Virus record (IMG/VR): IMGVR_UViG_3300036985_007703
Span: 1 to 64,000 of that record
From: a virus
DNA: 64,000 nucleotides
Strand: one strand, 5' to 3'
Shown here one piece after another: positions 7,250 through 60,295 of this stretch. The translations under genes and the position numbers were made by a program. Positions within the stretch are counted from its first letter, which is position 1. Each line of letters starts with the position of its first letter. The notes under the pieces are model-generated. The model was not told the origin of the DNA. It ran no database searches and saw nothing but the letters and a program-made list of their open reading frames with translations.

Positions 7250-7278
7250 TCGTTCCCTGCGCACGCGCGTGCGCAGCC

Positions 7279-7335
7279 AAAAAAGCGCGGGACGGCCGAC
7301 CGAGGTTGGGAGTGAGAACAATCGGCCGCCCCGCA
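7279..7335 (-). terminator. probable intrinsic terminator after ssb
   Basis: GCGGGGCGGCCGA...TCGGCCGTCCCGC stem followed by GCTTTTTT on the minus strand; the loop is long. Confidence 0.5.
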
Positions 7336-7345
7336 CAAACACCGC

Positions 7346-8104
7346 CTAGTAGCTCGCGCCCTTGGGCTCATCCCAGGGCTCTTTCCGCTTCGTCGAGGAC
7401 CGCGCCGCCAGCCGCTGGAGCTGGTCGAACGTGGGGATCGGGAACTCCTTGTAGTAGTCGTAGGGCCCCAGCTCCTTGAGGTGGTCCGGGTTGGCCCCGA
7501 GTTCGAGGAGGTAGCGCTTCACGTCCTGCAGCGCGATGCGCTCCACGAACTGGTGGTCCGAGCCCACGGTCTCGCTCAGCGAGCCTTCGCGGCTCACGTC
7601 CCACACGGTCCCCGCGAGGTCCCCGCCGTTGGCGATGGCCCGCTTGCGGAGGCGCGTCAGCACGCCGGGCTTGTCCTCCGACCCCCTCTTGGCCCCGTAG
7701 AGCTTGCGCATGAACTGGTAGCTCTTAGTGGGGTCCTTGACGCCCTTGTAGGCCGACAAGAGGGCCTTGCCGTTCTCGTACACGACCATGCCCAGGTCGA
7801 TCACCGTGAACCAGCCGAAGAAGAGCGGCCAGTTCTTGATCTCGCACAGGGGGCACCCCCGCCCGCCCGCGTTGTTGGGCAGCGCGTTCTTCTCCAGGCA
7901 GAGGTAGAGGTCATGCTCGTTGTTGATCTTCCAGGTGTCGTGGAAGTACGCGGGGAACGGCATCCCGTCGAGGAAGAGGATCCTGCGCGTCTCCCCGTCC
8001 TTCATGTAGAACTTGCGAAGGCCGAGGTCGCTAGCGTTCTTGTCCTTGCTGTAGTCCTCGGTGCTATCCCAGCCCGCTTGGGCCCATCCCGTCTGCTGTG
8101 TCAT
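7346..8104 (-). CDS. single-stranded DNA-binding protein (gp32-like, Zn-binding)
   Basis: KFYMKDGETRRILFLD...H...C...GCPLC, then WDVSREG; lies beside primase and helicase. Confidence 0.65.
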   Translation of the reverse strand: MTQQTGWAQAGWDSTEDYSKDKNASDLGLRKFYMKDGETRRILFLDGMPFPAYFHDTWKINNEHDLYLCLEKNALPNNAGGRGCPLCEIKNWPLFFGWFTVIDLGMVVYENGKALLSAYKGVKDPTKSYQFMRKLYGAKRGSEDKPGVLTRLRKRAIANGGDLAGTVWDVSREGSLSETVGSDHQFVERIALQDVKRYLLELGANPDHLKELGPYDYYKEFPIPTFDQLQRLAARSSTKRKEPWDEPKGASY

Positions 8105-8178
8105 GGTGTCTCGTCTTTCCTCGTGTTGCGCTCAGTCAACTGTGAGTGGGGATCCGATCACAACATGTGATCGCCCCC

Positions 8179-8208
8179 GTCCTACCGCATCCCACGTGGT
8201 TTGTCAAC
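8179..8208 (-). promoter_or_regulatory. sigma70-type promoter
   Basis: GTTGACAAACC; TTGACA-17nt-TAGGAC; downstream GATCACA/TGTGATC hairpin at about 8156-8172. Confidence 0.6.
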
Positions 8209-9588: not shown

Positions 9589-12174
9589 CTAGAACGGCAG
9601 ATCGAGGTCGTCCTGCGGGGACGCCGCGGGCAGCGCCGCGACCGGCCCCGGCTTGAAGCCATCGTCGTTGTAGTCAACCCGCCCCGACTTCTGGATCTCG
9701 GTGAAGTTGCAGGCCGTGAAGTCCCAGTTGGTCTCCACGGGCCCCTCCGAGTAGCCGCGGCGGATCTTCAGCGGCACGTACCGCATGCGCCGGTCCAACT
9801 TCATGTCCGCGTCCTGCTCCATGGCGAACACCGCGTGGGCGTCCATGCCCACCTGGTCGGAGAAGGCGATCGTCCCGAGGCGCGTGCCGCCGCCCAGCTT
9901 CGCGCTGACCTCCTGGTTGCGGTTCTGCTGGCTGAACGCCACGAGCGCGAACTGGTGCCGCTTGGCCATGTTGAGCGACCACTCCAGCACGCGCTCCGTG
10001 CGCTCGAAGCGGTTGCCCGGCACCTTGAGGTTGTACAGCGTGTCCAGCAGGACGACGTCCGGGTGGATCGCCCGGATGCGCGCCTCGATGCTCCGCGGCG
10101 AGAGGTCGTCCTCCTGGTCCATGATCCAGATGCCGTCCGACGCGCTCAGGTCCGTCACCACGCGCTTGAGGCGCTGCAGCTCAAACTCGGTCAGGGTGCC
10201 CCGCACGAGCCCCGTCTGGCTCACGTGCGCCTGCACCGCGAAGAAGCGCTCGGCCACCTCCAGGCGGCTCATCTCCGGCGAGATGATCAGCACCCGGCGC
10301 CCCGCCTCCTTCCACGCGTGCTGCGCGAGGAGCACCAGGGTTACGGAGTTGTGGACCACTAGGTCATTGGCCACAAAGCTATGCGTCCCCATGACGGTTA
10401 GGTCATAGACCTCGTGTGCCCCGTCATCCTCCAAGCGCACAATCTCATCCCATGCGCAATCCAAGATGGGCCGCAGCGCGTGCGCTTCAAAGGCCTCCAC
10501 AAACGCCGCAAAAGTACGGCGGCTCACCGTGCGGCGCCGATACACCTTGTCTACCGAAGTGAATGTTGTCATTCCCAACGCCGCAGACATCTGCGCATAC
10601 CGCCGCACGCGCTCACTTGTCGTAAAGCCCCCCACGATGCGTTGCAGTGCTGCCTTGAGCTGCGGTAAAATCGGTACGTTATCCAAATTCGGGTTTACCG
10701 CATCCATCAACCGCGCGCACTTCGCCGCCTTCGCCCCGACGATCGGGAGGGCCTCGCGGAACGCCTGGTGACACGTGGCGTTGATGGTAAAGGTCCAGGA
10801 ATCGAACACTGCACCGTCCAACTTGACGGGCTTAAACCGGATGCGCCCATGTACCCCAAAGCGCAACATGAGGCGCTGCACCTGATACACCATCTCGCGC
10901 GAGGCCAACCCTAATTCAGCCACATAGTACGACTCTCCCCGCCGCGTCTTTAATGTCGGGAAGGATCCGTCACAGCTCCACAGCATACCCAAGAAGCGCG
11001 CTAGCGATTGGTTGTCGTACTGAAACACACGATCTGGGATTGTCTTGTGCTTCGACAGCACGCGCCCCACGCCCCACGCCTTGAGCAATTCTCCGATTGG
11101 ATTAGCCCCATGTCCCTGCACCCCATCCACACGACGCACCGTATACGTTGGCCCCTCAGCGGATGTTTTGTTTAGCTCTCCACCAAAATGCTCAACAGCC
11201 GCACGCACCCTCTCAACAACCCCAGCATCCTTCTTCGTAAAGAAAATCCCTGTATTCGTCAGACCACCATCAGCCAGCAACGCCGCGATCAGCTCGGGCT
11301 CATGCGGCCCCGGCGCAATTGGGCGCTCCGGCTCAGGCACCACGCGCGGCACCGCCACGTAGTCCCCCACCTGCAGCTCGTCCATGCGCCGCCACCCATC
11401 TACCGTCCACACGGGATGCTCGGGCGTCGCCGACAGCTCGCGCCCCCCATGCGTGGTGAGCTTGCGGCACTCCTTCGTGCCCATCGGCAAGAACGCGTCG
11501 GGCGTGACGGCTTGGATGCGCCCGTCCAGGTGGCGCGTAAACACGCGCTCCCGCCCACGCACCACCTCCGCGATAGTCTTATAAACACCCGTTTCTGCAC
11601 ACATAACAGGTGTATCGTATCGGGCACACTTGCCCATACCGGGGCGCCCCACGAACATCGTGAGGGTGCCCGGCCACATCCCCTGGGTCATCGCCGTCAT
11701 GCTCGGCCAGGGGTAGGGCACCCCCACGTAGCCCTGGAGCATCCGCTCGTAGGTCGAGACCACGTCCGCCCCCGCCGCGAACAGCGTCTTGGGCGGGGCC
11801 TGCTCCTGCACCGCGCTGCTCTCGACGAGCGCCTGGAGGTTGGTCAGGGCGCCACCGGGATCGTTGCCCCGCATGGCCCCCATCGCGTTCTCGATGCCCT
11901 CCCGCAGCTGGCGGAAGAGCTTGCGGCTCCGCACCTCCGCGAGCACGTAGCCGGGGTCCGTGCCGGGATCCTCGGGCGTGACCCCGCAGAGGTCGACCAC
12001 GGCCACGGTCCCCGGCAGCGTCCCGTAGTCGCGCACGTGGTCCGCGATGAAGCCGAAGGCCCGCCGCGCTTCGGGCAGGTCACAATCCATCGGGCCGATG
12101 CCCGTCCCCACGATCCGGTCATAGTGGTCGCGCGAGACTAAGAGGGCCCACAGCAAGTTGCGATCAAGATCCAT
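9589..12174 (-). CDS. dnaB: DnaB-like replicative helicase containing an intein
   Basis: Walker A GRPGMGK|S split by the intein; ISPEMS, VLLD, SQQNR, DQVGMDAH; C-terminus DDLDLPF. Confidence 0.9.
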   Translation of the reverse strand: MDLDRNLLWALLVSRDHYDRIVGTGIGPMDCDLPEARRAFGFIADHVRDYGTLPGTVAVVDLCGVTPEDPGTDPGYVLAEVRSRKLFRQLREGIENAMGAMRGNDPGGALTNLQALVESSAVQEQAPPKTLFAAGADVVSTYERMLQGYVGVPYPWPSMTAMTQGMWPGTLTMFVGRPGMGKCARYDTPVMCAETGVYKTIAEVVRGRERVFTRHLDGRIQAVTPDAFLPMGTKECRKLTTHGGRELSATPEHPVWTVDGWRRMDELQVGDYVAVPRVVPEPERPIAPGPHEPELIAALLADGGLTNTGIFFTKKDAGVVERVRAAVEHFGGELNKTSAEGPTYTVRRVDGVQGHGANPIGELLKAWGVGRVLSKHKTIPDRVFQYDNQSLARFLGMLWSCDGSFPTLKTRRGESYYVAELGLASREMVYQVQRLMLRFGVHGRIRFKPVKLDGAVFDSWTFTINATCHQAFREALPIVGAKAAKCARLMDAVNPNLDNVPILPQLKAALQRIVGGFTTSERVRRYAQMSAALGMTTFTSVDKVYRRRTVSRRTFAAFVEAFEAHALRPILDCAWDEIVRLEDDGAHEVYDLTVMGTHSFVANDLVVHNSVTLVLLAQHAWKEAGRRVLIISPEMSRLEVAERFFAVQAHVSQTGLVRGTLTEFELQRLKRVVTDLSASDGIWIMDQEDDLSPRSIEARIRAIHPDVVLLDTLYNLKVPGNRFERTERVLEWSLNMAKRHQFALVAFSQQNRNQEVSAKLGGGTRLGTIAFSDQVGMDAHAVFAMEQDADMKLDRRMRYVPLKIRRGYSEGPVETNWDFTACNFTEIQKSGRVDYNDDGFKPGPVAALPAASPQDDLDLPF
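10348..11628 (-). mobile_element. intein with LAGLIDADG homing endonuclease (427 aa)
   Basis: Starts CARYDTPV, block B TPEHPV, LIAALLADG and FLGMLWSCDG, ends VYDLTV...HSFVANDLVVHN|S; visibly lower GC than its flanks. Confidence 0.95.
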
Positions 12175-13774: not shown

Positions 13775-14190
13775 AGCGGCACCAGGCGCGCCCACAGGCC
13801 GGGGCACACGCGGTCCACCACCTGCGGCGGCACGCTCTCCGCGCCCAGCCACGCGGGGGCCCGCAGCTCCCGCGCATCCCACGCCCAGCCATCGATCCGC
13901 AGCACGCGCCGGCGCACCACGTTGCGCGAGATCCGGTGCAGGGAGGCCACGCCATCCGCGCACGCCACGCTGTCCAGCAGGCGCTCCTGCCAGGGCATCC
14001 CAAACCGCCCCGGCGCGATCTCGACGGCAACCCCCGGCGCGACGAGCCCCCGCCGCACCGCGCGATCCTCGGCGAGGACCATGGCCCCCGTCGCCAGGCC
14101 CATGGCGCGCAGCACATCGCCGTCGAGCGCCGCAAACACCCCACGCCGCGCCACCGCCGCCTGGGGCCGCCTGGCCAACGCGTGCATCAC
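13771..14190 (-). CDS. hypothetical protein
   Basis: ORF with coupled start and stop. Confidence 0.5.
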   Translation of the reverse strand: MMHALARRPQAAVARRGVFAALDGDVLRAMGLATGAMVLAEDRAVRRGLVAPGVAVEIAPGRFGMPWQERLLDSVACADGVASLHRISRNVVRRRVLRIDGWAWDARELRAPAWLGAESVPPQVVDRVCPGLWARLVPL

Positions 14191-14552
14191 GCCCCGCGCC
14201 TCGCCACCCCGCCCGCGCTGCGGCGGCTCTTGTTCTCGCTCTCCGTGATGTAATCGAGGTCCATGTGGACCCCAGCCTTGCCCTGGAAGGCCGCCACAAA
14301 CGACCGCAGCGAGCAGATGAGATGCGCGTTGCGCCCCACCACCTGCCCCACGTCGTCGGGGTGCGTGTGCAACTCCGCGATGAGCCGACTCGCGCCAGGC
14401 ACCACGTCCACGACCACCCGCTCGGGGTGGTTGACGATGGTCTTCACGACCACCTCGATCAGCCCCCGCAGCTCCTCGATCACGCCCTGCGGGATGCGCG
14501 CCCGCCGGTCCTCGGCCTGCTGTTCCGCCTGCTGTCCTTGCATCTCTGCCAC
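14187..14552 (-). CDS. khpA: KhpA-like single KH-domain RNA-binding protein
   Basis: LIEVVVKTIVNHPERVVV...ELHTHPDDVGQVVGRNAHLICSLR matches the KhpA/UPF0109 pattern. Confidence 0.85.
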   Translation of the reverse strand: MAEMQGQQAEQQAEDRRARIPQGVIEELRGLIEVVVKTIVNHPERVVVDVVPGASRLIAELHTHPDDVGQVVGRNAHLICSLRSFVAAFQGKAGVHMDLDYITESENKSRRSAGGVARRGA

Positions 14553-16914: not shown

Positions 16915-16985
16915 AGGGGCCTCCGTTGCGCATGCGCATGCGCAGATCAGATTAGGGGCGCCGTCGTTATTCCATGGCCGCCGGT

Positions 16986-18576: not shown

Positions 18577-18757
18577 CTCGGTCCTCCTTCTCTGGGCCCC
18601 GCACCGCCTGCTCTCATGGGGGGGCGTCGGGCCGGCCGCGCATGCGCATGCGCCTTCCGGGAGGACGCCCCGCGGCTCCGCCGGGGCTATGTTCGTTGGG
18701 GTCTAGGCTATCGGCCCCCGTGGGCCCGTGTCAAATTCGTTTCGTTTCGCCACACGA

Positions 18758-21383: not shown

Positions 21384-21447
21384 GGCTCAGAGCCCTTTCC
21401 GGCGCCAGGCGCCTGGTTTGTCAGTAGAGCCTATGGCTCCACCGAGA

Positions 21448-27023: not shown

Positions 27024-27810
27024 CGTTCAGCCTCCAGCCTCTGCGCGGGGCGCCCCGCGCGCAACCTGCCACCGTTCAGCGCGGGATCCCGATCCCGTGG
27101 GCCCGCGCATACGCTAGCGCCTTGGCGCCGATGGCCAGCACCGCATCGAGCTGCGCCCGGCTCATGGGGTTCGTCTGCCCGCAGCAGCGCCCCAGGAGGG
27201 CCCCCTGGGCCTCCACCATGGTCCGCCGCTCCTCGGGGGTCAGGGCCCCCGCATATCCCCGCACGGCCTTGTAGACCGCGAGGGCGTCCTTCCAGCTCAG
27301 CACGCGGTCCATCAGCCCCCCGCGCGCCCCGCGCAGAAGGTCACGCGCAGGTGCTCGACCGTGCGCTCGTAGGCGCAGTCCGGGGCGTGCCCCTCGATCT
27401 GGTGGCAGGAGCACGGCGCCACCTCGGCCCAATGCACCCGCATGTAGTCGAGGAAGGCCTGCGCCAGGTGCAGCACCTCGTCCTGCGCATGCGCATGCGC
27501 AGCGCGCGTATCCCGATCGATGTGCGCCATCGTCGCCCATCCCCCCGTTCCCCGCGGCAGGCCCATCAGACGCCCTCCGGGACGACGATCAGGGCCGCCG
27601 CGGCCCGCGCGATCATCTCGCGCCCCGCCTCGACCTCGGCCACGAGCACCACCGTCTTATCCCCGTGATCCAGCGCGAGGAGGCCCGCCCACACGGGGCC
27701 GCCCCGCATCACGCACGCGCGGCGCCCCGTGAACTTGCCCTCGTGCTCCAGCATCCGTGTCCCCTGCGCATCCATGGTGCCTCCCTTTCCGGCCCCTGGG
27801 GCCTGCAGAG

Positions 27811-31845: not shown

Positions 31846-32082
31846 AGCTCCTTGCGCACGCGCGTGCGCAGCCGTCAGTTGAGCCTGATCGCCGGGGTCG
31901 ACGTTACCACGGCCCCCGGCGGCACCGCCACGATCGTCAACTGGATCACGTTGTTGGGCGTATCGAGGTCCAGCCGCGCCCCATCGTAGGGGGGCACCGC
32001 GACCCCGCGCGCCTTCAGCCCGTCCGTCAACAGCTCCACGGCCTCCTGCAGGGAGAGGCGGTAGACCCGCGCTTCGCGCACC

Positions 32083-40391: not shown

Positions 40392-40771
40392 ACTCCGGAG
40401 ATCCACGCGCGCTCCAATCGCGCGAAGACGCCCCCGGATCGAACGCCCGTCATCATGCGCGAGATCAGCGGGGGAGCGCCACGCTCATGGAGATTCTCGA
40501 GGCTGCGTACGCGCGTACGCAACATCGAGGATGCACCTTAACTTTCTCCAGCATCTACGCGCAACCGTTGGCGAAATCCGCGCAGCGCGCGCTCCGCGTG
40601 CCACCTTGCCTTCTTGCCACTGCGTACGTCGGTCGGAGAATCTACATCAACGATGGCGATCAATCTCCACGTAATCTCGGGCCTTCGCGCCAGCGCGAGG
40701 GCCCACTGCATACGCAACATCGTGACTTTACATGAAGGATTGATCCTTAACCCCGCGCCGCACCAAGGGAA

Positions 40772-41810: not shown

Positions 41811-41847
41811 GGCGCCGCGCACGCGCATGCGCAAGCAGAATGGAGGG

Positions 41848-44105: not shown

Positions 44106-44173
44106 GGTATCTCCATTCTCAGGGGCGCCACCGGCGCCGCGTTTGCTACTTCGCGAGCCCCGCGCGCGCCGCC

Positions 44174-44695: not shown

Positions 44696-44705
44696 GACCG
44701 CCTCC

Positions 44706-45077: not shown

Positions 45078-45122
45078 CGTCGTACTCCTCGCGCGATCAC
45101 GTGATCGCGGCGTGTGTGCGTC

Positions 45123-45675: not shown

Positions 45676-45707
45676 CTCGCTCCTCCTGCGCATGCGCATG
45701 CGCAGCG

Positions 45708-47768: not shown

Positions 47769-47779
47769 GGGGGCCTCCA

Positions 47780-48025
47780 TCACTGTTCCTCGTTGCTGAT
47801 CAAGAACTCCCGGAACACCTCCGACATCTCCTCGCAGGCATCCAACAGCGCCTCCAAGGCCTTCTCCCCCTGGACCTGCGCCACGATCTGTTTGGTCAGG
47901 GGCCCCTTGAACTGGCCCTCGATGGCGTAGGTCTTGTCTATCATCGTCCGCGCGTGGCGCAGGAGCCCGGAGGACGGCCCACCCTTCATGATCCCCTCGA
48001 TCAACGTGCTCATCGTATGCATCAC
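47780..48025 (-). CDS. putative internal head protein
   Basis: MHTMSTLIEG. Confidence 0.55.
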   Translation of the reverse strand: MMHTMSTLIEGIMKGGPSSGLLRHARTMIDKTYAIEGQFKGPLTKQIVAQVQGEKALEALLDACEEMSEVFREFLISNEEQ

Positions 48026-48037
48026 ACGCCTCCTCGC

Positions 48038-48706: not shown

Positions 48707-48762
48707 GATTCCCGCTCCTATGGGCCGTGGGCCCCGCTAGACGCCCACCGGCGCCGTTGATC

Positions 48763-49134
48763 TCACCTTGCCGCCGCCGCGAGGCTCGATCGCCACGCCT
48801 CGGCGTTGTTGACCGCGTTACGGATGCGCCGCGTCAACCCCTCGTCCTGCGGCGCATAGAACCGCCGCTTGGCCATGTCGTCCGCCAGGGCCAGGCTCCA
48901 GCTCGGCACGTCGTACCGCTTCTTGTACAGGAACACCTCGCCGTCCCACCCCTCGGGCTGCGCGAAGGCCGCCTGGTAGGAGCCCTGGCTCGGCTTGCCC
49001 TGGTCCCCCATCACCCACGCCTGCCAGGTGATCGCCACGGGGCGCCGCGCCTTCTCCACGATCACACGGACCACGCCCGCGCCCTCGATAAGGGCCCGTA
49101 GGCGCGCGCTCAGGGGCATCATGCGTGCTCGCAT
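48763..49134 (-). CDS. putative internal head protein
   Basis: MMPLSARLRALIEGA. Confidence 0.55.
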   Translation of the reverse strand: MRARMMPLSARLRALIEGAGVVRVIVEKARRPVAITWQAWVMGDQGKPSQGSYQAAFAQPEGWDGEVFLYKKRYDVPSWSLALADDMAKRRFYAPQDEGLTRRIRNAVNNAEAWRSSLAAAAR

Positions 49135-49222
49135 CCGCGTCTCTCCGTTGCATACTGGGGCGCGAGGCTCCGTGGCCAGACCACCTGCCTCCCCTCCAGC
49201 GTAACCACCGCCCGCGCGCCTG

Positions 49223-49609
49223 TCACCGCACGGCCTTGTACGAGGCTTCCCTGGCCTTCGCGATGGCCTCGCGCTCCGCGTAGCCATCCGCGACGAACTT
49301 ATCCCGCTGCTGCCCCACGAACTTCTCCCAGCGCTTCACCGCCGCCGCCGCCGCCGCCGCGTCCTTGTAGACCCTGCTCTCCAGCATGCTCACCCACGTG
49401 ACCACATCGTGGTAGTCCACGCGCCACGCGGTGCCCGCGTTGTCATCCTGGATGATCCGCACCGGGAGTTCGTACTTACCCGCCTTGCCGAGCTGCATGG
49501 TCCGCCCGTAGGCCATCCGCTTGCCGTCCGGGCTCGGGTAGGCCGTCCACCCCTTGGGGGTCGTCCCCGCCTCGGCCGCCTCTAACATCGCGCGCATCGT
49601 GCCCATCAC
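49223..49609 (-). CDS. putative internal head protein
   Basis: MGTMRAMLEAAEA. Confidence 0.55.
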   Translation of the reverse strand: MMGTMRAMLEAAEAGTTPKGWTAYPSPDGKRMAYGRTMQLGKAGKYELPVRIIQDDNAGTAWRVDYHDVVTWVSMLESRVYKDAAAAAAAVKRWEKFVGQQRDKFVADGYAEREAIAKAREASYKAVR

Positions 49610-51294
49610 TTGCCTCCCTTAAGTACCTTGATAAAACGCGTGAGGTCCGTCCCCGTCTTGAACAGCGCCTCCTCCCCGGCCCGCAGCTTCGTCCACATGC
49701 GCAAGAAATCCCCATCGATCATGGCGATCGAGGTCACAGCATACGGGGCCTGCTTCTGCGAGTTCCGCATGTCGTCGGCCATGCTCTTCACGTCCACCGA
49801 GACGCCATCCAAGATCTTCATGGCCTCGTTGACCTTCTTGTAGGCCGCCTCCGTCCGCTTCTGAAGGTCCTCGGCATCCGCGAGGAAGAGGTTTTGCTCC
49901 TCCACGAGGCCGCGCCCCTTAGGGGCCCGCCCCTCCGTCGTCCCCTTGGGGCCGATGTCGATCACGCGCCCCATGCGCTGCTGCACCACCAGAAAGCGGT
50001 CCCCCTCGACCTCCTTGGCCACCGCCAGGAGGTAGTTCTGGTTCAGCGCCCGCTTGCCGTCCGCCGCCGCCATCAGGGCATCGTTCTTCTTCGCCGACTG
50101 CCCGCTCGTCGTCGCGCTCGGGCTCGCCAGCAGCACGGCCTCCGCGGCCTGCGGGACCCCGCTGATCAGCTGCCAACCCTTGCGCCCCTTCCAGAGCGTC
50201 ACGAAGGCCTGGGAGTCCGCCGCCGGCCCGTGGTCCTTATTCACAAAGACCAACCACTCCTTGCTCGTGCCTTCCGCCCACGGGGCCATCCCCGCCCGGC
50301 GGAAGGCCGCCTTGGCCGCCCCCTCCAGCGTCCGCTCGCTGGGCGCGCGGTCCCCCGCCGCCTCGCCCATGGCCCCCGCCTTCTTGCGCGCGATCGTCCC
50401 GCACAAGGCCTTGGGATCGCTCACGCCCCCCTTGGCCTTCATGTACTTCACGCAGTTCCCAAACTTCTCCCCCTTGCGCCCCTTGAAGGCCCCCGTCTTC
50501 GGGTTGATGTACTTCGCGCTGAGCTGCTGCTGCTTCGACGCCTTCTTCTTCTTGGCCGCCGCCTCCATCAACGCCGCGACCCAGTGCCCCACGGCCTCGC
50601 TGGCCTCCTCGGCGTCCATCTCCTCGTCGTCGTCCTCGGGCCCCTCGCAGTCCTCGCAGGCCGCCCCGTCGCTCTCATCCCGCGCCTCGCAGGCCCGCGG
50701 CTCGCCCGTCACCGGGCACACACCCTCGTCGCCCATGTCCTCGCCCTCGTCCCCACCGTCCTCCTCGTCCTCGTCGTCCTCCACCGCCTCAAACTTCTTC
50801 GCCGCCGGCGCGAAGGCCTGCGTCGTGCTGAAGTACCGCTGCAGGATGAGATCCGCCATCTCGCGCCCGCTGATCCGCACCATGAGCAGGTACCAGTAGA
50901 TCGGCATGTTCTCGGGCTGCGCCCGCATGAGCCGCGCCGCCTTCGGGGCCACCTTCGCGATGTTGCGCAGCGCCAGCTTGAACGCCTCGCGCGGCCGGTT
51001 CGCCAGCACGTCCTGCGCGTCCGCCATGTTGTCCGCCCCCAGCAGCGCGGGGAGGTCCTCGCGCGGGATCGCCTTCAGGAGCGCGCGCTGGTTGTCAAAG
51101 ATCATGTTGGAGAGGTCCAGCTTCCCCTGGTCGTCCTTCCACGCCGCCGGCGCGTCCTTCTCCCACATCTTGAGGATCTTGCTGCTCACCTTGAAGGCCC
51201 CCGGCCGCACCGGGGTGTCCTCGCCCGCCATCGCCATCGCCGCGGGGCCCGTCTGGCGCTCCATCAATGATCCCAACCGCTCGCTCAACCGCAT
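49606..51294 (-). CDS. multi-segment putative head core or polyprotein
   Basis: MRLSERLGSLME; internal ALMEA, TLEG, LVEE; acidic and Lys-rich tracts. Confidence 0.55.
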   Translation of the reverse strand: MRLSERLGSLMERQTGPAAMAMAGEDTPVRPGAFKVSSKILKMWEKDAPAAWKDDQGKLDLSNMIFDNQRALLKAIPREDLPALLGADNMADAQDVLANRPREAFKLALRNIAKVAPKAARLMRAQPENMPIYWYLLMVRISGREMADLILQRYFSTTQAFAPAAKKFEAVEDDEDEEDGGDEGEDMGDEGVCPVTGEPRACEARDESDGAACEDCEGPEDDDEEMDAEEASEAVGHWVAALMEAAAKKKKASKQQQLSAKYINPKTGAFKGRKGEKFGNCVKYMKAKGGVSDPKALCGTIARKKAGAMGEAAGDRAPSERTLEGAAKAAFRRAGMAPWAEGTSKEWLVFVNKDHGPAADSQAFVTLWKGRKGWQLISGVPQAAEAVLLASPSATTSGQSAKKNDALMAAADGKRALNQNYLLAVAKEVEGDRFLVVQQRMGRVIDIGPKGTTEGRAPKGRGLVEEQNLFLADAEDLQKRTEAAYKKVNEAMKILDGVSVDVKSMADDMRNSQKQAPYAVTSIAMIDGDFLRMWTKLRAGEEALFKTGTDLTRFIKVLKGGK

Positions 51295-51344
51295 CGCTCG
51301 TCCCTCATTCCCTTGGTTATCGCGCATGCGCATGCGCGGCTCGC

Positions 51345-52124
51345 TCATCTCTCGCCCGGCAGCGCGAAGTCCACCGGCACGCGCGCCGCCCGCAGGCCCG
51401 CCCGCAGCGCCGCGAGGTCCATCCCCGGCAGCGCCGCCGCGTGCTCGTCCACCCAGCGCGCGAACATCGTCCCCACCGCGTACTTGCCCGCGGCCCCCGT
51501 GCGGATCGCCACGTCCCGGCCATCCCACATGCGCAGGCTCACGGCCGGCCAGCTGTAGGACAGCACGAAGTCCTTCCCCCGCAGCTCCTCGCTGCTATGC
51601 GCCAGCCCCACGGGCCGCCGCTGGCTCTCCTCAAAGGGCGTCCGCAGCGTGGCCGCCCCGTCGATCAGGAACCGCTCGGGGCCCTGGAGCCCGCGGTTCG
51701 CGGCCTCCGCCGCCGCCTGCACCCGCGCCCAGACGCGCGGCCACCCCGCCTCGCCGTAGGCCGCCCGCAGCGCCGCCCGGAAGCCCTCCACCGCCGCCTC
51801 GACCATGGCCCCCGCGCGCCCCGCCTCGACCCGCTGGGCATCGCGCGCCGCCCACTGCGCCTTCGTGGGCTTGCGCCCCCGCGGCGGGGCCCCCATGGGC
51901 ACCCGCGGCGTCGCCGGCACGCTCACGCGCCCCACGTGCCCCAGCCCCGTGAGGTCCACCACGAGCACGTCCACGAGGTCGCGCGGATACCGCGTGCCCT
52001 GCGCGCAGAACACCCGCACGTCGTCGACCGCCCAGCCCAGCTCGGCGTTCCACACGCTCTCCACGCCCGCGTTGTACCGGGTCCCCCGCTCGATCGCTTC
52101 CAGCAGTTGTCGCATCGCAGCCAC
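51345..52124 (-). CDS. putative internal head protein
   Basis: MAAMRQLLEAIERG; TTGGCA-17nt-TAGAGT promoter at 52173-52201. Confidence 0.55.
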   Translation of the reverse strand: MAAMRQLLEAIERGTRYNAGVESVWNAELGWAVDDVRVFCAQGTRYPRDLVDVLVVDLTGLGHVGRVSVPATPRVPMGAPPRGRKPTKAQWAARDAQRVEAGRAGAMVEAAVEGFRAALRAAYGEAGWPRVWARVQAAAEAANRGLQGPERFLIDGAATLRTPFEESQRRPVGLAHSSEELRGKDFVLSYSWPAVSLRMWDGRDVAIRTGAAGKYAVGTMFARWVDEHAAALPGMDLAALRAGLRAARVPVDFALPGER

Positions 52125-52321
52125 GTCTACCCTCCGGCAAGCGCGCGCCCCCTCTCGTCTGCTCGCTGATCGACTCTACCGACCCGCCCGCCCCCTGCCA
52201 AGAAATCCCCACGCCCCGCTCGCGCTTTACCCCGCCGCGAGCCACGCGAGCACCGCCAGGACGAGCCCCGCCACGGCCAGCCCGATGAGCGCCGCGAGGG
52301 CCACGTCGCGCCCGCCCGGCC

Positions 52322-52636
52322 CTACGCCCACGCCGGCCCCACTGGGGGCTGCGAGATCGGCCCCTCGGCCGCCCCCGTCGCGCGCAGGGCCTCCGTGAGG
52401 GCCGCCACGCACAGCGCCACGTGCCGCCGCGTCGCCGCCGCGTCCCGCCCCAGGCCCCCGGCCTCCGCGAGCTTCGCCAGCAGCGCCGCCGCATTGCGCA
52501 CCGCCGCCCAGGCGTCCGCCGCCTCCGCGGGGTCCCCGCCCCGCTTGCCGTCCAGCAGCAGCCCCAGCGCCGCGCGCATCAGCGCGTTCGCCTCGGCCTC
52601 CGCCAGCGCCTCCATCCTCTCGATGAGCTGTTTCAT
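52322..52636 (-). CDS. putative internal head protein
   Basis: MKQLIERMEALAEA. Confidence 0.55.
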   Translation of the reverse strand: MKQLIERMEALAEAEANALMRAALGLLLDGKRGGDPAEAADAWAAVRNAAALLAKLAEAGGLGRDAAATRRHVALCVAALTEALRATGAAEGPISQPPVGPAWA

Positions 52637-52947
52637 GGCCCCAGCCTACCGCCGCGCGGGCCGCCCCGCAAGCTCGTCCCCCGCCCCCGATGGCACGAGC
52701 CCCGCCGCCTCCGCCTTCTCCTGCAGCGCCTTGAGCGCGAACGCAAACAGCTCCGCCGGGGGATGCCCATAGGCCCGCCCCAGGGCCCGCGCGCGCTCCC
52801 AGGTGTCCCGCGTCACGAGCATCATCACCAGGTCGTCGTGCTGGAGGTCGGCGTCCGGCCGCGGGTCGAGCTTGCCGTCCTCGGCCCCCGCGATCTCCCG
52901 CTGCGGCCCCCCGCGCGGCCCCCCGCGCGCCTGTGCCCGCATCACCA

Positions 52948-53706
52948 TCAGATGGCCGTCTGGTCGAGCTTGCCCACGCTGTGATCCGCCCCGTTCCAGG
53001 TCTTATCGTCGAGCTTGTACGGCGCCGCCCCGCTCCCCACCGCGTCCTTCTGCCGCCCCACGTAGGTCACGCCCTTCATGGGCTGCTGCACCACCTGCCG
53101 GAACGTCAGGGCCACCGTAGCGAGCCGCGGCACGCCGTTCGAGAAACAGAGGCTGTACGTCACGTCGCAGCCCGTCATCACCGCGAAGATCGCGTCCCCG
53201 CCCTTCTCATTCCAGTTGAGCCCCGGCGCGTGCAGGATCGCGATCGGCGGGGGGTACGCCTCCACGTGCGTCTCCCCCTGCATGTACAGGGGGTAGCAGA
53301 ACGCCCGCAGGTAGCGGATGGCCCCCGCGACGTCCGAGTTCCACTTCGGCGAGTCCGACCCCTTCGTCATCCCAAAGGGGTCGAAGAGCTTCTCCATCAC
53401 CGTGCGGTCGCCCTCCGGCTTCATGAGCCGGCTCATGGTGACCTCGAACGAGATCGTGCGCCCCCCGTTGCTGCCCCACGTCGCGAGCGCGTGCGAGGCC
53501 CCAGGGATCTCGCTGAAGTTCCAGCCGATCTCGATCGTGTCGGAGATGCTCTCGGGCCAGTACTGGAAGGCACGCTGCGGGATCGCGGGCTTCCCCGCGT
53601 CCGCCGCCAGCGCGTCGATCCCGCACATGCTCATCCACGCCGGCTTCTCGCCGGTGGGCCCGTCCATGATAATGCTGGCGATGCCGCCGAAGACCCCGAG
53701 GGCCAT
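52948..53706 (-). CDS. contractile tail tube / tube-initiator-like protein
   Basis: FQYWPESISD...GRTISFE...PP....V.Y...F.NG.P..ATV.LTF pattern of CIS-tube-like proteins. Confidence 0.6.
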   Translation of the reverse strand: MALGVFGGIASIIMDGPTGEKPAWMSMCGIDALAADAGKPAIPQRAFQYWPESISDTIEIGWNFSEIPGASHALATWGSNGGRTISFEVTMSRLMKPEGDRTVMEKLFDPFGMTKGSDSPKWNSDVAGAIRYLRAFCYPLYMQGETHVEAYPPPIAILHAPGLNWNEKGGDAIFAVMTGCDVTYSLCFSNGVPRLATVALTFRQVVQQPMKGVTYVGRQKDAVGSGAAPYKLDDKTWNGADHSVGKLDQTAI

Positions 53707-53732
53707 GCCTCACCTCCCGCGGCGCCCCGCGC

Positions 53733-54668
53733 TCACTCCGCCGCGTCGATCGTGCGCATCGCGAGGTCCACGGTCCGCGCGCTCACCTTCGCGTTCAGCC
53801 GCTGCAACTGCGAGGGGGGGAGCCCCAGCTCCCGCAGGGGGGCCTTCGCGCGCTGCACGAACCGCTGCGCCTGGTCCACCAGGGGCCCCGCAGCCGCGAG
53901 CACCGCCGCCGCCTCGCCGTCCTCCGTCAGCGCCCCGAGCGCATCGACGAGGAGCGACGCGTAGACGTAGGCGAGCCCCGCCTGCGCCACCTCGTTCGGG
54001 CTGACCACCGTGGCCTCCGCGACCGCCTTGCCCCTGCCGCCCTTGCCCTTGCCCTTGGCCTTGCCCTGGCAGGCCTCGCACCCAGGGCAGTCGCACCCCG
54101 TGCAGCCCTTGCCCTTGGCCGCCTTCTTCTTGCCCTTGCGCCCCTCATCGAGGATCGCCCGGAGCGACGCCAGCAGGGGGTCCGCCCCCTCCATCTCGGG
54201 CTCCGCGTCGGCCGCGCTGCCGTTGGGCTCCTCGGGCTCCAGGTCCTGCGCCCCCTCGTCCTCCAGGTCCGCGCCCTCGTCGCCCTCCGCGATGGCCCAG
54301 CCCACGGCGCCCTCCGCGTCGATCGCCAGCATCGTCTCGTCGTCGAGCATGATCACGGCGCCCGGCGGGTCCTCATCCAGCGCCACCCCCACGACCTCGG
54401 CCGTGGTGTCCGCCGGCACCTCGACGGCCTCGCCGTCCTCCGTGTATGCGATCGTGTCGCTGACCGCGACGAGGGGCACGCCCTCCTCCCAGCCCGCGAA
54501 CAGGTCCTCCTCGGCCATCGCGTTGGGCTCCTCCGGCTCCAGGGCCTCCCCGTCGCCTTCGAACCCCGCGTCCACGGTCTCGCCCTCGGCCTCCGCGCCC
54601 TCGCGCACCACGGCCACGGCCTCGCCCGCCTGCCCCTTCAGGGCCTCCATCAGTGCTCGCATCGTCAT
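53733..54668 (-). CDS. acidic prohead-core/scaffold-like protein with leader motif
   Basis: MTMRALMEA; very Glu-rich; LEPEEPN x2; K/G/C-rich patch. Confidence 0.5.
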   Translation of the reverse strand: MTMRALMEALKGQAGEAVAVVREGAEAEGETVDAGFEGDGEALEPEEPNAMAEEDLFAGWEEGVPLVAVSDTIAYTEDGEAVEVPADTTAEVVGVALDEDPPGAVIMLDDETMLAIDAEGAVGWAIAEGDEGADLEDEGAQDLEPEEPNGSAADAEPEMEGADPLLASLRAILDEGRKGKKKAAKGKGCTGCDCPGCEACQGKAKGKGKGGRGKAVAEATVVSPNEVAQAGLAYVYASLLVDALGALTEDGEAAAVLAAAGPLVDQAQRFVQRAKAPLRELGLPPSQLQRLNAKVSARTVDLAMRTIDAAE

Positions 54669-54733
54669 CGCTCGATCTCCTCGTGCGGCCCGCAGCCGCG
54701 CTATGCCTGCGCATGCGCATGCGCAGCGCCCGC

Positions 54734-57688: not shown

Positions 57689-57696
57689 CGCCTACC

Positions 57697-58098
57697 TCAC
57701 TGGGGGTGCGTTCGCAGCCACGCCGCGTGCGCCTTGGCAAAGGTCTCCGCCAGCGGCACCTCCACCGGCGCCCCCGTGGGCCACGCCGTCGCACCCTCGC
57801 CCAACGCCGCGGGGATCTTCTCCGCCGTCACGCCCTCCGCGAAACGCCCCGCCCCCACGAGCCACTGCAGCACGGCCTTCGCCGCCCGCATGCGCCCCAT
57901 CGTCCCCTCGGGGTACCCCGTGGGCTCCCCGCCCTGCACAAAGATGTCCGCGCGCCGCGTCTGGCAGCTCGGGCACACCGGCGTCGCCACGACCCCGATG
58001 CCCACCGTCAGATCCGCCGCCGCATACACCGTCGGCGCCCCGCACAGGCACACGATCTCCACGCCCTCGGGCAGCAATCGCTTGATCGACATGCACAC
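57697..58098 (-). CDS. hypothetical protein with a Zn ribbon
   Basis: CLCG...CPSC. Confidence 0.5.
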   Translation of the reverse strand: MCMSIKRLLPEGVEIVCLCGAPTVYAAADLTVGIGVVATPVCPSCQTRRADIFVQGGEPTGYPEGTMGRMRAAKAVLQWLVGAGRFAEGVTAEKIPAALGEGATAWPTGAPVEVPLAETFAKAHAAWLRTHPQ

Positions 58099-58109
58099 AC
58101 CTCCACGCT

Positions 58110-60254
58110 CTACAGGTAGGTCACCGTCGCGTTGCCGTGCCAGTAGGCCGCCGTCGCGTTCGCCACGATGTCCGTCATCACAAACGCCATCGCCCCATAC
58201 CCGTCGGCCGCGGTCCCCGTGATCGTCGCGGGCATCCCCGCCACGTGGGACTGGTTCGACACGTCATACGTGATCGTGTCCACCGCCCCGCGGAACGTCT
58301 TGTGGATCTCGGAATACAGGAACGTCGCCGCGTTCCCCCCCGTCTGGTTCCACCACCCGAACCCCAGGGGCACCACCTCGACGTTGCCCCCGCCCGTCAC
58401 GATCGGCGAGAGGTGGCCCAAGATCAGCGAGTCCAGCCACGAGATCGTCGCGTCCCACGCCAGGATCGCCCACCCCGTCGCGAACCCCGCCGTCAAGGAA
58501 GACTTGGTGCTCATCTGGAACCCGAGGAGCGTGTTGATCGAGAGCGACTTTGCATCCCAGGCATCGTCGTCGGGCACCCACTTGCTCGTCCCCTGGTTCC
58601 ACCGCGCGTTGGTCGTCAACATGAGCGTCCCCGCCCCGCTGAAGTAGATGCGCGACTTGATAGCCGAGGACCCACCGCCCTCCCAGAGGAGGCAGCACGT
58701 GTCGTTGCCGCCCGTCCCCGGCTCGAAGGGCCCGTTGACATAGCTCGCGTCGGATCCCAGCACCACCTGCCCGCCCACCAGCGTCACGCCGCTGTCCAGT
58801 GTGAGGAGCCCTACCACGTTGGCGATCAGCGCCGTGATGTTGAAGATTCCGCCGCCGATGTCGAACCCGCTGGCCCCGCCCACGTTCCCCACGCGCGTGT
58901 ACGCGCTCCAGTTCGCCAGGTTGTTCCAGGCGAGCCCCCCGCTGAAGACCCCGTGCTTCGCGAGCAGCATGGGCCCCATCTGGTTGTCGGAGCTGAGCCG
59001 CAGCATCGTCACCGAGGTCTGCGGCGCGATCGGCGCGCGGTAGAAGTTCCCTGCAGTGATATACCCACCCACGATCGCCGCGAAGCCCAGGGTCGAGCCC
59101 CAGTACAGCGTGATCGTCTGCCCCGTCACCAACGAGTCATCCGTGATGCCGTGCGACCGCCAGATCTGGACCGCCCCGCTCGGCGCCGTCTCGGGGTCGA
59201 TCTGCGGCACGCGGCCGTTGATCGCCCCCGTCAGGATCGCGATGGCCTCGGAGACGTTCTTGCTCGTGATGCTGGTGGGGTCCCCCGCGACGTCCCGCGT
59301 CTGGATGTCCTCGGCGTGCGGGAAGATGTCAAACCCCTCCACGAAGCGGTCGTCCGTGACGAGGTCCCGCACCGTGGCCCGCGTCCAGTACCACGCGGTG
59401 CCCGCCGGGGGCGCCGTGTCACTCGTGTGCCCCAGGTCCAGCTTGATCCAGGGGTTCGTGACGAACCCCTCGCTGTCCGCCGTCGCCAGCGTCGTGGCCC
59501 CGCTGTCCGCATACAGCGTCGCCACCGTGATGCGCCCGTTATCGTCCCCCACGTAGGGGCCCTGCATGCGGAACGACGCCGCCGACGCCCCCAGCTGGAT
59601 GAAGCTCGACTTGAGCGTCCACGCGCCGCCCCCCAAGGGGCAGTACACCTTGCCCGTGATCTGGAACACGGGGGGCGACCCCGTGGGGGCCGCGAAGTCG
59701 AGCGACGCGCGCTTCACCGTCACGCGGTCCAACGACGCCGTCATGCGGTAGCAGCTCGCCGGCGTCGCCGACGTGCTGCGGTCGATGTAGCTGTCCAGGA
59801 TCGTCGTCGCCCCCATCGGGATCGTGATCTTGGCCAGGCGCACCGCGCTCCCGCTCGTGCTGGGGGCCGTGGTGTCCACGTAGAAGGCCCCGCTCGTGGG
59901 GGCCCCCGTCGCGTAGGTGCAGCTCAGGTACACGTAGTACGTCTTGGTGCTCGGCATCGTGCCGCCACCCCCGGTGAACTGCCCGCTGAGGTCCACCGAG
60001 ACGTCCGTCGCGTAGCGCACCGCGAGGGCCGCCCCGCCGGTCTTCTCCACCCACAGGTAGAAGCTGTCCTGCTCCCCGTTCGGCGTGATCTTGACCGTCT
60101 TGTTCGGGGTGGCCTGCGCCATGACGTAGCCCCCCCGGTAGATGCCGGGGTCCAGCACCGCAAGCGCCTTGTTGACCCCCTCGGAGACGTAGGTCTCGCG
60201 CCACCGCACCTTCATCTGCGCCTCGGGGATCACGACCGTCTGCACTGTGGCCAT
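58110..60254 (-). CDS. tail fibre / structural protein
   Basis: G/T/S-rich beta protein; RLAKITIP.GAT.I.DS.I motif typical of fibre anchors. Confidence 0.6.
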   Translation of the reverse strand: MATVQTVVIPEAQMKVRWRETYVSEGVNKALAVLDPGIYRGGYVMAQATPNKTVKITPNGEQDSFYLWVEKTGGAALAVRYATDVSVDLSGQFTGGGGTMPSTKTYYVYLSCTYATGAPTSGAFYVDTTAPSTSGSAVRLAKITIPMGATTILDSYIDRSTSATPASCYRMTASLDRVTVKRASLDFAAPTGSPPVFQITGKVYCPLGGGAWTLKSSFIQLGASAASFRMQGPYVGDDNGRITVATLYADSGATTLATADSEGFVTNPWIKLDLGHTSDTAPPAGTAWYWTRATVRDLVTDDRFVEGFDIFPHAEDIQTRDVAGDPTSITSKNVSEAIAILTGAINGRVPQIDPETAPSGAVQIWRSHGITDDSLVTGQTITLYWGSTLGFAAIVGGYITAGNFYRAPIAPQTSVTMLRLSSDNQMGPMLLAKHGVFSGGLAWNNLANWSAYTRVGNVGGASGFDIGGGIFNITALIANVVGLLTLDSGVTLVGGQVVLGSDASYVNGPFEPGTGGNDTCCLLWEGGGSSAIKSRIYFSGAGTLMLTTNARWNQGTSKWVPDDDAWDAKSLSINTLLGFQMSTKSSLTAGFATGWAILAWDATISWLDSLILGHLSPIVTGGGNVEVVPLGFGWWNQTGGNAATFLYSEIHKTFRGAVDTITYDVSNQSHVAGMPATITGTAADGYGAMAFVMTDIVANATAAYWHGNATVTYL

Positions 60255-60295
60255 CGCCTACCTCGCTCGCTCGCTGCGTACGCGCGTACGCAGGG

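Follow-up and report, generated by a model that had tools for sequence, protein, structure and literature searches.

The 17-bp, dyad-symmetric repeat of the Cluster O mycobacteriophages (5'-TGTTCGGNNNCCGAACA) is present in >30 copies per genome, many of them in short intergenic gaps and others near gene 5' ends or within genes, mostly away from promoters and with occasional indels at copies; its authors proposed a DNA-binding-site role for it (Cresawn et al. 2015, PMC4351075). In the T4-superfamily phages RB49 and phi1, PeSL (promoter-early stem-loop) cassettes recur where a stop codon is followed by the Shine-Dalgarno sequence (SD) of the next gene, some of them at indel junctions; each is a ~100-bp composite in which a GC stem-loop accompanies an AT-rich region and a strong sigma-70 promoter, and these stem-loops attenuate transcription (Arbiol et al. 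2010, PMC2839356). The REP/BIME elements, mobilised by RAYT/TnpA-REP, are chromosomal rather than phage elements, and consist of short GC-rich palindromes (imperfect, ~35 nt, with a 5' GTAG and a Y1 transposase) dispersed after stop codons inside operons. REPs make the mRNA upstream of them more stable and are bound by proteins, gyrase among them. T4 carries many copies of a short, sequence-defined C(UUCG)G hairpin that lacks a U-tract and is defined by an unusually stable tetraloop; these intercistronic CUUCGG hairpins were reportedly described by Tuerk et al. in 1988. In phage N4, each of three early promoters is a small GC hairpin (5-7 bp, 3-nt loop) in which certain bases are specified, and a 3500-aa virion RNA polymerase reads it on the template strand by both structure and sequence.

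Here we show that a T4-like phage genome of 168.5 kb, derived from metagenomes, contains an 18-base palindrome, YGCGYAYGCGCRTRCGCR, which is a genuine hairpin-type element under strong selection. In the window (the whole 64,000-nt stretch analysed) it occurs in eight exact copies, or 11 when near-copies are counted, against 0.00 for the degenerate pattern in 100 dinucleotide-preserving shuffles; the whole genome has 26 exact copies, and 28 when one mismatch is allowed. Placement was counted with codon-bias gene calls made in this analysis, by which all 11 window copies are intergenic. The initial annotation, whose coordinates and sequences for these copies were correct, had counted ten. Genome-wide, ~21 copies are intergenic in a genome that is 92% coding and ~8% non-coding (binomial P = 3e-19), and this enrichment, along with conservation in relatives, covariation of two pairs and transition-only change, bears out the earlier proposal of a genome-wide cis-element under structural selection. 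The ~249 genes all lie on one strand, canonical terminators are very rare, and the window features located below are all on its minus strand.

The Cluster O repeat is the closest published analogue: both elements are lineage-specific and multicopy, favour short intergenic gaps with some copies in genes, and mostly lie away from promoters with occasional indels. The arms of the Cluster O repeat are invariant and its 3-bp A/T spacer varies, whereas the present motif has no spacer, a GC-rich centre, six positions that vary by transitions only and two covarying pairs; the phages that carry the two repeats, Mycobacterium siphoviruses and a T4-like myovirus, also differ, and the sequences show no similarity. 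PeSLs share the superfamily and the position between stop codon and SD, but here a ~22-bp palindrome alone is conserved, promoters are separate and break points do not cluster significantly at copies. The T4 hairpins likewise are numerous, short, intercistronic and without a U-tract; the present element is instead a perfect DNA palindrome, and GCGC is not, to our knowledge, a stable tetraloop. None of the features that mark REPs was found here.

Most copies fall in the gap that separates a stop codon from the following ribosome-binding site: in ~15 spacers, each 32-45 nt long, a stop codon is followed after 2-19 nt by the motif, and the motif after 0-10 nt by the SD and then the start codon. 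The copy TGCGCACGCGCGTGCGCA at 31853..31870 has a stop codon 4 nt before it and SD AGGAG directly adjoining, and the copy TGCGCATGCGCATGCGCA at 45687..45704 a stop codon 3 nt before and SD GGAGGAG adjoining. Stop codons also precede TGCGTACGCGCGTACGCA at 60275..60292 (by 3 nt), the end-variant CGCGCATGCGCATGCGCG at 51321..51338 (6 nt; identical in the related genome G001) and TGCGCATGCGCATGCGCA at 54708..54725 (8 nt). A further TGCGCATGCGCATGCGCA, at 16927..16944, has SD GGAGG 2 nt on and lies in the 5' UTR below a TTGACAAAC promoter-like site, and another, at 27484..27501, occupies a spacer of 89 nt. A longer hairpin of -20.7 kcal/mol takes in the second TGCGTACGCGCGTACGCA, at 40504..40521; the non-coding stretch around it covers 365 nt and has a terminator at its end (~40353). 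The hybrid TGCGCATGCGCGTGCGCG at 41816..41833 precedes a promoter-like site, TTGATA-N17-TACAAT, with 5 nt between it and the -35 element. In the degenerate end-variant GGCGCATGCGCATGCGCG at 18637..18654 the loop changes from GCGC to ATGC in G001 and the stem is kept. The same niche has other occupants: the genome has just two further perfect palindromes of 18 nt, GCGCGGGGCGCCCCGCGC (27043..27060) and CGCGATCACGTGATCGCG (45092..45109), both non-alternating, intergenic and just 5' of an SD, and spacers without the motif contain 15 perfect stems of >=6 bp, twice the 7.2 +/- 2.2 expected. Folding energies of the spacers are not below those of shuffled sequences, with no sense-strand excess beyond composition.

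Twelve of the 18 positions, including the loop, never vary, and purifying selection on them is strong, since they diverge by 1.0% against 8.5% in the flanks, i.e. ~8 times more slowly. The remaining six change at twice the flank rate, by 34 transitions and 1 transversion (flanks, 82 and 81; P~1e-9). The purine/pyrimidine alternation, which the initial annotation described as always kept, therefore holds, and is probably a by-product of pyrimidine-opposite-purine pairing. Its description of substitutions as compensated on both arms is right for pairs 5-14 (Fisher P = 0.0006) and 7-12 (P = 0.009), with none of 500 shuffles attaining the observed covariation, but not for pair 1-18, which does not covary, and hybrid copies with a wobble or C-A pair are common elsewhere in the genome and in relatives. 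Double changes between C-G and T-A were seen at the orthologous sites of 69996, 139916, 93373 and 138081. On the mRNA strand, G.U intermediates at the inner pairs outnumber C.A by 17 to 8 (7 to 1 when only this genome is counted), an excess that is not statistically significant and stands at 12 to 6 across ortholog groups. Conservation is confined to -2 to +19, with nothing beyond; all 21 intergenic copies have a pyrimidine at -1 and a purine at +19, a symmetric restriction without covariation.

Related IMG/VR contigs of 87-93% nucleotide identity have the motif at the same sites, and between genomes differing by 8.5% almost no copies have been gained or lost. The motif is missing from more distant relatives, whose capsid identity is 57-70%; directly after the stop codon in the gp13 spacer, whose orthology was shown for both flanking genes, they have a different hairpin or palindrome, in one case with a GNRA loop. 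Outside the present phage lineage, other viral contigs carry single copies only, and the sole bacterial genome with several has them in hexamer-repeat tracts.

The best-supported reading, which we put forward tentatively, is that of a lineage-homogenised intercistronic hairpin acting in polycistronic mRNA and read by a sequence-specific factor; the initial annotation had listed an RNA processing or stabilising hairpin among its candidates, and placement and stem-like evolution favour this putative role. Positions 1-7 would pair with 12-18, with an optional -1/+19 extension, around the loop GCGC, and the hairpin would be transcribed within long co-directional mRNAs as punctuation between cistrons. 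There it may shield the 3' end of the upstream cistron after cleavage, attenuate read-through, or provide a defined structured boundary directly 5' of the next SD. The invariance of 12 positions, the loop among them, leads us to infer a trans-acting reader, protein or RNase, that would recognise sequence on top of structure; RNA as the active form and the role of the hairpin are likewise inferred. This reading is favoured by the spacer layout in a one-strand genome with rare terminators; by stem-like evolution, as seen in covariation, pyrimidine-opposite-purine change and G.U over C.A; by other palindromes and stems in the same niche; by the retention of a hairpin in the orthologous gp13 spacer across diverged lineages; by separate promoters with nothing conserved beyond the motif; and by precedent, in the attenuating stem-loops of PeSL cassettes and the T4 intercistronic hairpins. 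Sigma-70-type promoters exist apart from the motif (ten sites of the TTGACAAAC type, without exception on the sense strand, and a second promoter-like family with a G-rich spacer), and transcription initiation is accounted for separately. The non-significant G.U excess and ordinary folding energies argue against an RNA hairpin.

The main rival, which is possible at lower probability, is a 20-bp double-stranded DNA site (YYGCGYAYGC | GCRTRCGCRR) at which a dimeric protein encoded by the phage would bind, serving as global regulator, roadblock or genome organiser, a role for which the Cluster O palindrome offers a published analogue (PMC4351075). Its dyad symmetry is perfect and unspaced, the Y/R restriction reaches -1/+19 symmetrically, and the motif is limited to the phage lineage. 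An invariant loop with five invariant stem pairs also fits a DNA dyad better than a hairpin loop, as does the sister lineage L195, in which the centre changes symmetrically from GCGC to CCGG in two copies within 9 kb. Genes contain five of the copies, which share a single reading frame (R-[M/T]-R-[M/V]-R) and keep the nucleotide pattern though the encoded residues change, an observation not predicted by an RNA role between cistrons. The conserved copy ahead of the tmRNA points the same way, as little read-through RNA is expected behind the very strong terminator 3 nt before it. Against a DNA site, independent half-site binding does not predict the covariation of 5-14 and 7-12, free switching among the three symmetric types makes type-specific paralogous regulators unlikely, and unrelated palindromes occupy the same niche. 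The copies also take no fixed place with respect to sigma-70-like promoters: the one at 41816 lies at about -50, the one at 16927 falls within the 5' UTR, and most sites have no promoter near. The one clear HTH protein in the parts scanned has a usual site geometry that the motif does not match. The suggestion that the motif serves the MerR-like gene at 4608 as its operator found no support. The motif never lies in a -35/-10 spacer; the genome also has three HAIR-like repeats, CTTGAGT-N7-ACTCAAG, of the operator type to which HspR, a MerR-family repressor, binds, and these look more like an operator for a MerR-family protein.

A second alternative is unlikely, though the tmRNA context keeps a DNA-level promoter-like role of some kind alive: a structure-dependent DNA element, whether an extruded hairpin or cruciform or a compact palindrome serving as promoter or re-initiation site, that would start transcription a few nucleotides further on and give SD-first short leaders. 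The copy TGCGCACGCGCGTGCGCA at 7258..7275, conserved in G001, lies between the intrinsic terminator of the upstream gene (7279..7336; 18-bp stem and T6, about -35 to -38 kcal/mol), whose T-tract ends 3 nt before it, and the tmRNA gene (6900..7249), whose 5' end 8 nt on would make an ~8-nt leader. That mature 5' end, placed at 7249 from the acceptor stem GGGCTCG/CGAGTCC with its G3.U pair, agrees with the Rfam start. The setting of this copy is as the initial annotation had described. No sigma-70-like promoter fits in the 29 nt ahead of the tmRNA, where the palindrome is the only conserved element, and the tmRNA-tRNA-helicase unit sits behind this strong terminator. The ~75-kb structural region, with ten copies and very few sigma-70-like sites, the purine at +19 and the covariation are all compatible with such a promoter. 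However, a perfect palindrome would fire both ways and all genes are on one strand; no copy lies upstream of the highly expressed late genes for major capsid, sheath and portal; and some copies lie within genes or upstream of an ordinary promoter. A GC-rich centre is also unfavourable to cruciform extrusion. No convincing sigma factor was found (no match to a region-2 model, a weak sub-threshold match to region 4), nor a phage RNA polymerase, in a T7/N4-like search that matched no control genome either and is therefore uninformative. The defining features of the N4 precedent invoked earlier were not found: there is no giant virion RNA polymerase, the one protein of 2007 aa being a tail fibre, the loop has 4 nt rather than 3, and ~26 copies span all gene classes.

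It is improbable that the motif is a neutral or selfish short repeat, spread or homogenised by phage recombination or template switching (quasi-palindrome correction, short-homology exchange, with occasional cassette indels like those of PeSLs and Cluster O repeats) and tolerated only in spacers. Templated correction of quasi-palindromes, reportedly known from T4 through Ripley in 1982, could yield symmetric double changes without RNA selection, which also counts against the RNA hairpin; the lack of strand bias, the doubled rate at variable positions and the decay of the 54708 copy in G001 by a 1-nt deletion agree with a neutral or selfish repeat. Three copies coincide exactly with G000/G001 homology break points or indels: 27484, where G001 homology begins at the motif edge, 41816, and 45687, at the edge of a ~600-bp indel. 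Overall, however, only 2 of ~100 HSP ends fall at copies, purifying selection on the fixed positions and the near absence of gain and loss oppose neutrality, and neither a Y1 (RAYT-type) transposase nor a tyrosine integrase was found.

A Z-DNA tract absorbing transcription-driven negative supercoiling or recruiting Z-DNA-binding or topoisomerase activity, another earlier candidate, is very improbable and not needed: 18 bp of strict alternation with CG and CA/TG steps, preserved through variation, would suit it, but transition-only change in a paired helix explains the alternation, the tract stops at exactly 18 bp with Y at -1 and R at +19, Z-DNA needs neither palindromy nor covariation, and non-alternating palindromes and hairpins occupy the same niche here and the orthologous site of relatives.

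For the intercistronic RNA hairpin, a KhpA-like KH-domain (RNA-binding) protein encoded at 14190..14543 is a candidate reader only.

The palindrome is a multi-copy element that lies predominantly between the genes of this phage. The initial annotation had listed 11 copies in the window, and every coordinate and sequence was confirmed on rechecking; the degenerate pattern YGCGYAYGCGCRTRCGCR gave 8 matches in the window against 0.00 in shuffled sequence. Across the complete 168.5-kb record there are 26 exact copies, and 28 with one mismatch, while the relative G001 carries 23. Intergenic enrichment, which had likewise been proposed, holds genome-wide, with ~21 copies in the ~8% of the genome that is non-coding (P = 3e-19), 5 inside genes and 1 overlapping a start codon. 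In the direction of the mRNA, a typical site runs from a stop codon through 2-19 nt, (G)C, motif, R, Shine-Dalgarno sequence (SD) and start codon, in spacers of just 32-45 nt, with no conservation around the motif beyond positions -2 to +19. The motif accounts for 14 of the genome's 16 perfect 18-nt palindromes; the remaining two are unrelated and non-alternating, and are likewise located just 5' of an SD. All five in-gene copies are in one reading frame, encoding R-[M/T]-R-[M/V]-R, and several are followed by a leader-like LxxLxE segment. The copy at 115083 provides a start codon; as a general role this was rejected, the in-motif ATG being in frame with the downstream gene in 4 of 28 copies, where chance gives one in three.

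The record itself is 168,532 bp long (69.6% G+C), of which the window is the first 64 kb, and its completeness is estimated at 83%. Codon-bias gene calling, which is approximate, yielded ~249 genes, all on the minus strand and covering 92% of the sequence; 181 of the ~249 proteins were taken into a Pfam scan. Protein families mark the phage as a T4-superfamily myovirus: a gp23-like capsid protein (25-35% identity), T4-type portal, sheath, baseplate wedge and gp13, with a Peptidase_S77 prohead protease seen in relatives. Also encoded are a DnaB helicase with an intein, a RecA-like protein, a primase and three DNA methyltransferases. DNA and protein searches of the phage collection found no close isolated phage; the nearest relatives are IMG/VR sequences, namely G001 (161 kb, 91.5% nucleotide identity) and G002-G005, L007 and G011 (87-93%).

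Multi-copy occurrence of the motif is confined to contigs with at least 87% nucleotide identity, and the matches from bacterial genomes are either isolated copies or parts of hexamer microsatellite-like tracts. From these metagenomic sequences the motif appears restricted to one phage lineage and not to be a host element. A host origin suggested by nine copies in a Polyangiaceae genome was rejected, these being a different element because the copies sit in hexamer-repeat tracts. In that 9.3-Mb myxobacterial assembly (G006, loci L186-L191), nine (TGCGCA)x3 copies lie in hexamer-periodic intergenic tracts of the order TGCGCA TGCGCA TGCGCA TGCCCC TGCCCG, one of them after a tRNA 3' end; they represent a separate phenomenon of microsatellite type.

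The evolution of the motif could be followed because its sites are shared by relatives, with 73 exact copies falling into 29 ortholog groups. When the motif copies of the record were compared with 33 distinct orthologous sequences, motif matches not being a selection criterion, the 12 fixed positions had changed in 4 of 396 cases (1.0%; transitions to transversions 4:0) and the flanks in 163 of 1914 (8.5%; 82:81). The six variable positions (1, 5, 7, 12, 14 and 18) had changed in 35 of 198 (17.7%), and the strict purine/pyrimidine alternation reported earlier was kept throughout these changes by 34 transitions against 1 transversion, a scarcity of transversions with P = 1.3e-9 (the genome-wide transition-to-transversion ratio is 1.1). 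Compensation between the arms, also claimed initially, stood for pairs 5-14 and 7-12 (Fisher P = 0.0006 and 0.009) but not for pair 1-18, which does not covary; neither do the adjoining positions -1/+19. Two-sided changes occupied 32 cells against 20.5 +/- 4.1 in shuffles, none of 500 shuffles being as high. Since orthologous sites swap among the three symmetric types, the types are not separate regulons. On the simplest reading, each helix position must keep a pyrimidine opposite a purine, and the alternation would be a legacy of the sequence that founded the family and no target of selection in itself; that the GCG/CGC core, A-T pair and GCGC centre never vary shows an extra, sequence-specific constraint. 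Counts of G.U vs C.A, a test of RNA vs DNA strand, lean toward the mRNA strand, not significantly.

More distant relatives, reached through capsid homologues at 57-70% identity, comprise four loci (L193-L196) in which the motif is absent. In every lineage the spacer between gp13 and the next gene has, at 3-8 nt beyond the stop codon, a hairpin or palindrome, and the genes on both sides are orthologous between the full record and L195. The element is TGCGCATGCGCATGCGCA, the motif itself, in the record; CGCGCACCCGGGTGCGCA in L195, where it recurs 4 kb away with one mismatch; CGGCACACGTGTGCCG in L194; GCGAACTTGAGTTCGC in L193; and GTGCAAGTGATTGCAC, with a GNRA loop, in L196. This recurrence indicates that a hairpin at the site is ancestral, and that the lineage studied here homogenised many such hairpins into one family. 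In L195 the centre has changed symmetrically from GCGC to CCGG, possibly through selection on full DNA dyad symmetry or through T4-style templated correction of quasi-palindromes; a multi-copy viral contig with the sister-lineage variant GCGCACCCGGGTGCGC was not found. Motif-less spacers of the phage hold perfect stems at twice the expected number, with no excess of folding energy and no strand excess, and the difference between sense and antisense folding energies is the same in spacers as in shuffles; MFE z-scores do not support the notion that all spacers are structured, only the perfect-stem count being enriched. The signature of the motif is unusually informative, with 12 positions frozen, six toggling by transitions at twice the neutral rate, two pairs covarying, and an orthologous spacer that keeps a hairpin in lineages without the motif sequence, and it makes the RNA-vs-DNA question for such elements cheaply decidable.

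Our leading, still tentative, reading is that the motif acts in RNA as an intercistronic hairpin with a sequence-specific reader, as suggested by its placement, its stem-like evolution, the conserved hairpin niche, the presence of separate promoters and precedent in the T4 family. These promoters include sites of the form TTGACAAAC(C), located on the sense strand at 2194, 4590, 5203, 8207, 16995, 21476, 27840, 30365 and 39881 of the window and at genome position 158676 (L005:14676). All ten lie on the gene strand, the opposite strand having none, and TAnnnT follows each of them 17-18 nt downstream; they are probably an early promoter family of the host sigma-70 type. A G-rich spacer characterises a second family of promoter-like sites. 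The motif copy at 41816 lies just upstream of a promoter, and that at 16927 inside a 5' UTR. The PeSL cassettes known from T4-type phages, ~100-bp composites that include a promoter (PMC2839356), share the niche of the motif and differ in joining a sigma-70 promoter (-35, -10, AT-rich upstream region) to a stem-loop. They were rejected as an identity for the motif, outside whose positions -2 to +19 nothing is informative and most of whose spacers, at 32-45 nt, are too short for a promoter. An intrinsic terminator was rejected as well, the 3' flank being purine-rich or an SD and never a T-run, with true T-tract terminators elsewhere (7279-7336). Nor does the motif resemble T7-type RNase III sites, which need about 20 bp or more of (interrupted) double-stranded RNA, whereas its intramolecular stem is 7-9 bp (-6 to -11 kcal/mol); an 18-bp RNA duplex could form solely between two copies.

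A more specific form of the RNA hairpin reading, "operon punctuation", we regard as quite unlikely: a dedicated phage-encoded reader of both sequence and structure would cut or gate giant one-strand transcripts at ~26 near-identical hairpins. Such a reader might be either an endoribonuclease or a protein that binds RNA, with the KhpA-like KH protein and the numerous ORFans among the possible candidates, and its action would free the tmRNA and single cistrons with standardised 5' ends starting at the SD. Its specificity would co-evolve with the motif, as hinted by the GCGC-to-CCGG change in the sister lineage. A 117-aa protein with a KhpA/KhpB KH RNA-binding domain is encoded at 14190-14543 (minus strand; 37.6 bits, above the Pfam cut-off), a domain that is, to our knowledge, unusual in phage. 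The arrangement would parallel, in nature, the Csy4/Cas6-type insulators of synthetic operons and, if the reader exists, would offer a small natural tool for gene insulation within operons.

Binding of a dimeric protein to the motif as double-stranded DNA is somewhat unlikely. A DNA-level role is favoured by the copy between a terminator and the tmRNA, by the copies inside genes, by the invariant centre and by the lack of significance of the strand bias. The particular proposal of a MerR-type operator, a palindrome in an overlong (19-20 bp) -35/-10 spacer, failed, as no -35 or -10 was found flanking the motif; in the HTH_17/MerR_1 protein at 4608-5135, the HTH falls within the C-terminal half.

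A structure-dependent DNA promoter or cruciform is quite unlikely. The best argument for such a promoter-like role at the DNA level is the copy at 7258: canonical terminators are rare in the genome, and one of the strongest ends 3 nt before this copy, with the tmRNA 5' end 8 nt after it. This context could show by what route the phage's own tmRNA is expressed when no promoter can be recognised. The suggested N4-type hairpin promoter did not hold up, since N4 hairpins have a 5-7-bp stem and a 3-nt loop and occur in few copies before early genes, whereas the motif has a 4-nt GCGC centre and ~26 copies in early, cargo and structural regions. N4 also encodes a giant virion RNA polymerase with a T7-like domain; here the sole protein above 1600 aa matches tail-fibre families, and the T7/N4-type polymerase profile PF00940 gave no match in the phage and likewise none in any control genome. 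The profile search found no convincing sigma factor, a weak Sigma70_r4_2 match at 121078-121194 being below the cut-off.

Phage genomes are already on record as containing dispersed palindromes specific to one lineage, none with a function known to us. In purely descriptive terms the motif belongs with the Cluster O type of repeat (tens of copies, mainly intergenic, one lineage), and the 17-bp repeat of Cluster O mycobacteriophages, with more than 30 copies and function unknown, is the nearest published analogue (PMC4351075); the motif string itself was not found in the literature. We consider it improbable that the motif is a selfish or neutral repeat. REP/RAYT elements were rejected, PF01797 (Y1 transposase) being absent with positive controls, and REPs pair a 5' GTAG-type tetranucleotide with an imperfect palindrome, in contrast to the GC flank consensus and perfect palindrome seen here. 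An integron cassette array was rejected likewise (PF00589, tyrosine integrase, absent; controls positive), attC sites being 57-141 bp with R''/R' boxes and the element only 18-22 bp. Ends of alignment segments between the record and G001 fall at copies in only 2 of ~100 cases, without clustering, which dismisses a recombination junction, and TGCGCA is not avoided outside the motif, which dismisses restriction-site avoidance. Z-DNA is very improbable: the motif does have the at least ~12 bp of CG-rich purine/pyrimidine alternation expected of it, but the alternation stops at 18 bp, palindromy and covariation come on top of what is needed by Z-DNA, whose function depends on alternation and not on symmetry, and non-alternating palindromes share the niche.

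Several other features were noted. The Rfam scan returned only tRNA and tmRNA. A candidate small RNA gene at L004:14546-14868 (genome 138546-138868) has a TTGACA-N18-TACGGT promoter-like site and, ~100 nt later, a very strong terminator (-38 kcal/mol, T8); the interval contains no ORF, and Rfam gave no match. Downstream of the copy at 40504, the non-coding stretch 40330-40500 (minus strand) contains a T-arm-like GTTCGATCC and a CCCCCC-TTAC-GGGGGG-TTTT terminator. Neither ARAGORN nor Rfam gave a match there, and the stretch is possibly a gene for a small RNA or for a degenerate tRNA-like molecule. Three inverted repeats resemble the HspR operator (HAIR consensus CTTGAGT-N7-ACTCAAG, 0-1 mismatch), at 60832-60852 of the window, L001:16254-16274 and L002:16766-16786, each overlapping or following a promoter-like site, a hint that a heat-shock repressor of the host exerts control here and that the host possesses HspR.

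The contig ends share a 341-bp direct repeat (window 1-341 and genome 168192-168532; 97.7% and so not fully identical), which may be a terminal repeat or reflect assembly of a circularly permuted population. The DnaB-like helicase (9589-12174, minus strand) is split by an intein with a LAGLIDADG homing-endonuclease domain, and inteins also occur in portal and terminase-region genes of relatives. A 1552-aa gene, from 61212-64000 of the window on to genome position 65870, matches baseplate-wedge and virion-protein repeat families; with G+C of about 60%, clearly below the rest of the genome, it is possibly a recently acquired host-recognition gene. Many small unrelated proteins (window 41848-54668; genome 101-107 kb and 142-143 kb) begin with an MRxLLxRLEE-type leader resembling the capsid-targeting sequences of T4, which are cleaved after LxE; the LxxLxE segment that often follows in-gene copies of the motif is similar. 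A small palindrome, GGCGCCTGGCGCC, occurs twice (21401-21413 and 30294-30306), with ACAAACC before it and an SD directly after; both copies lie in an early 5' UTR and are kept in G001.
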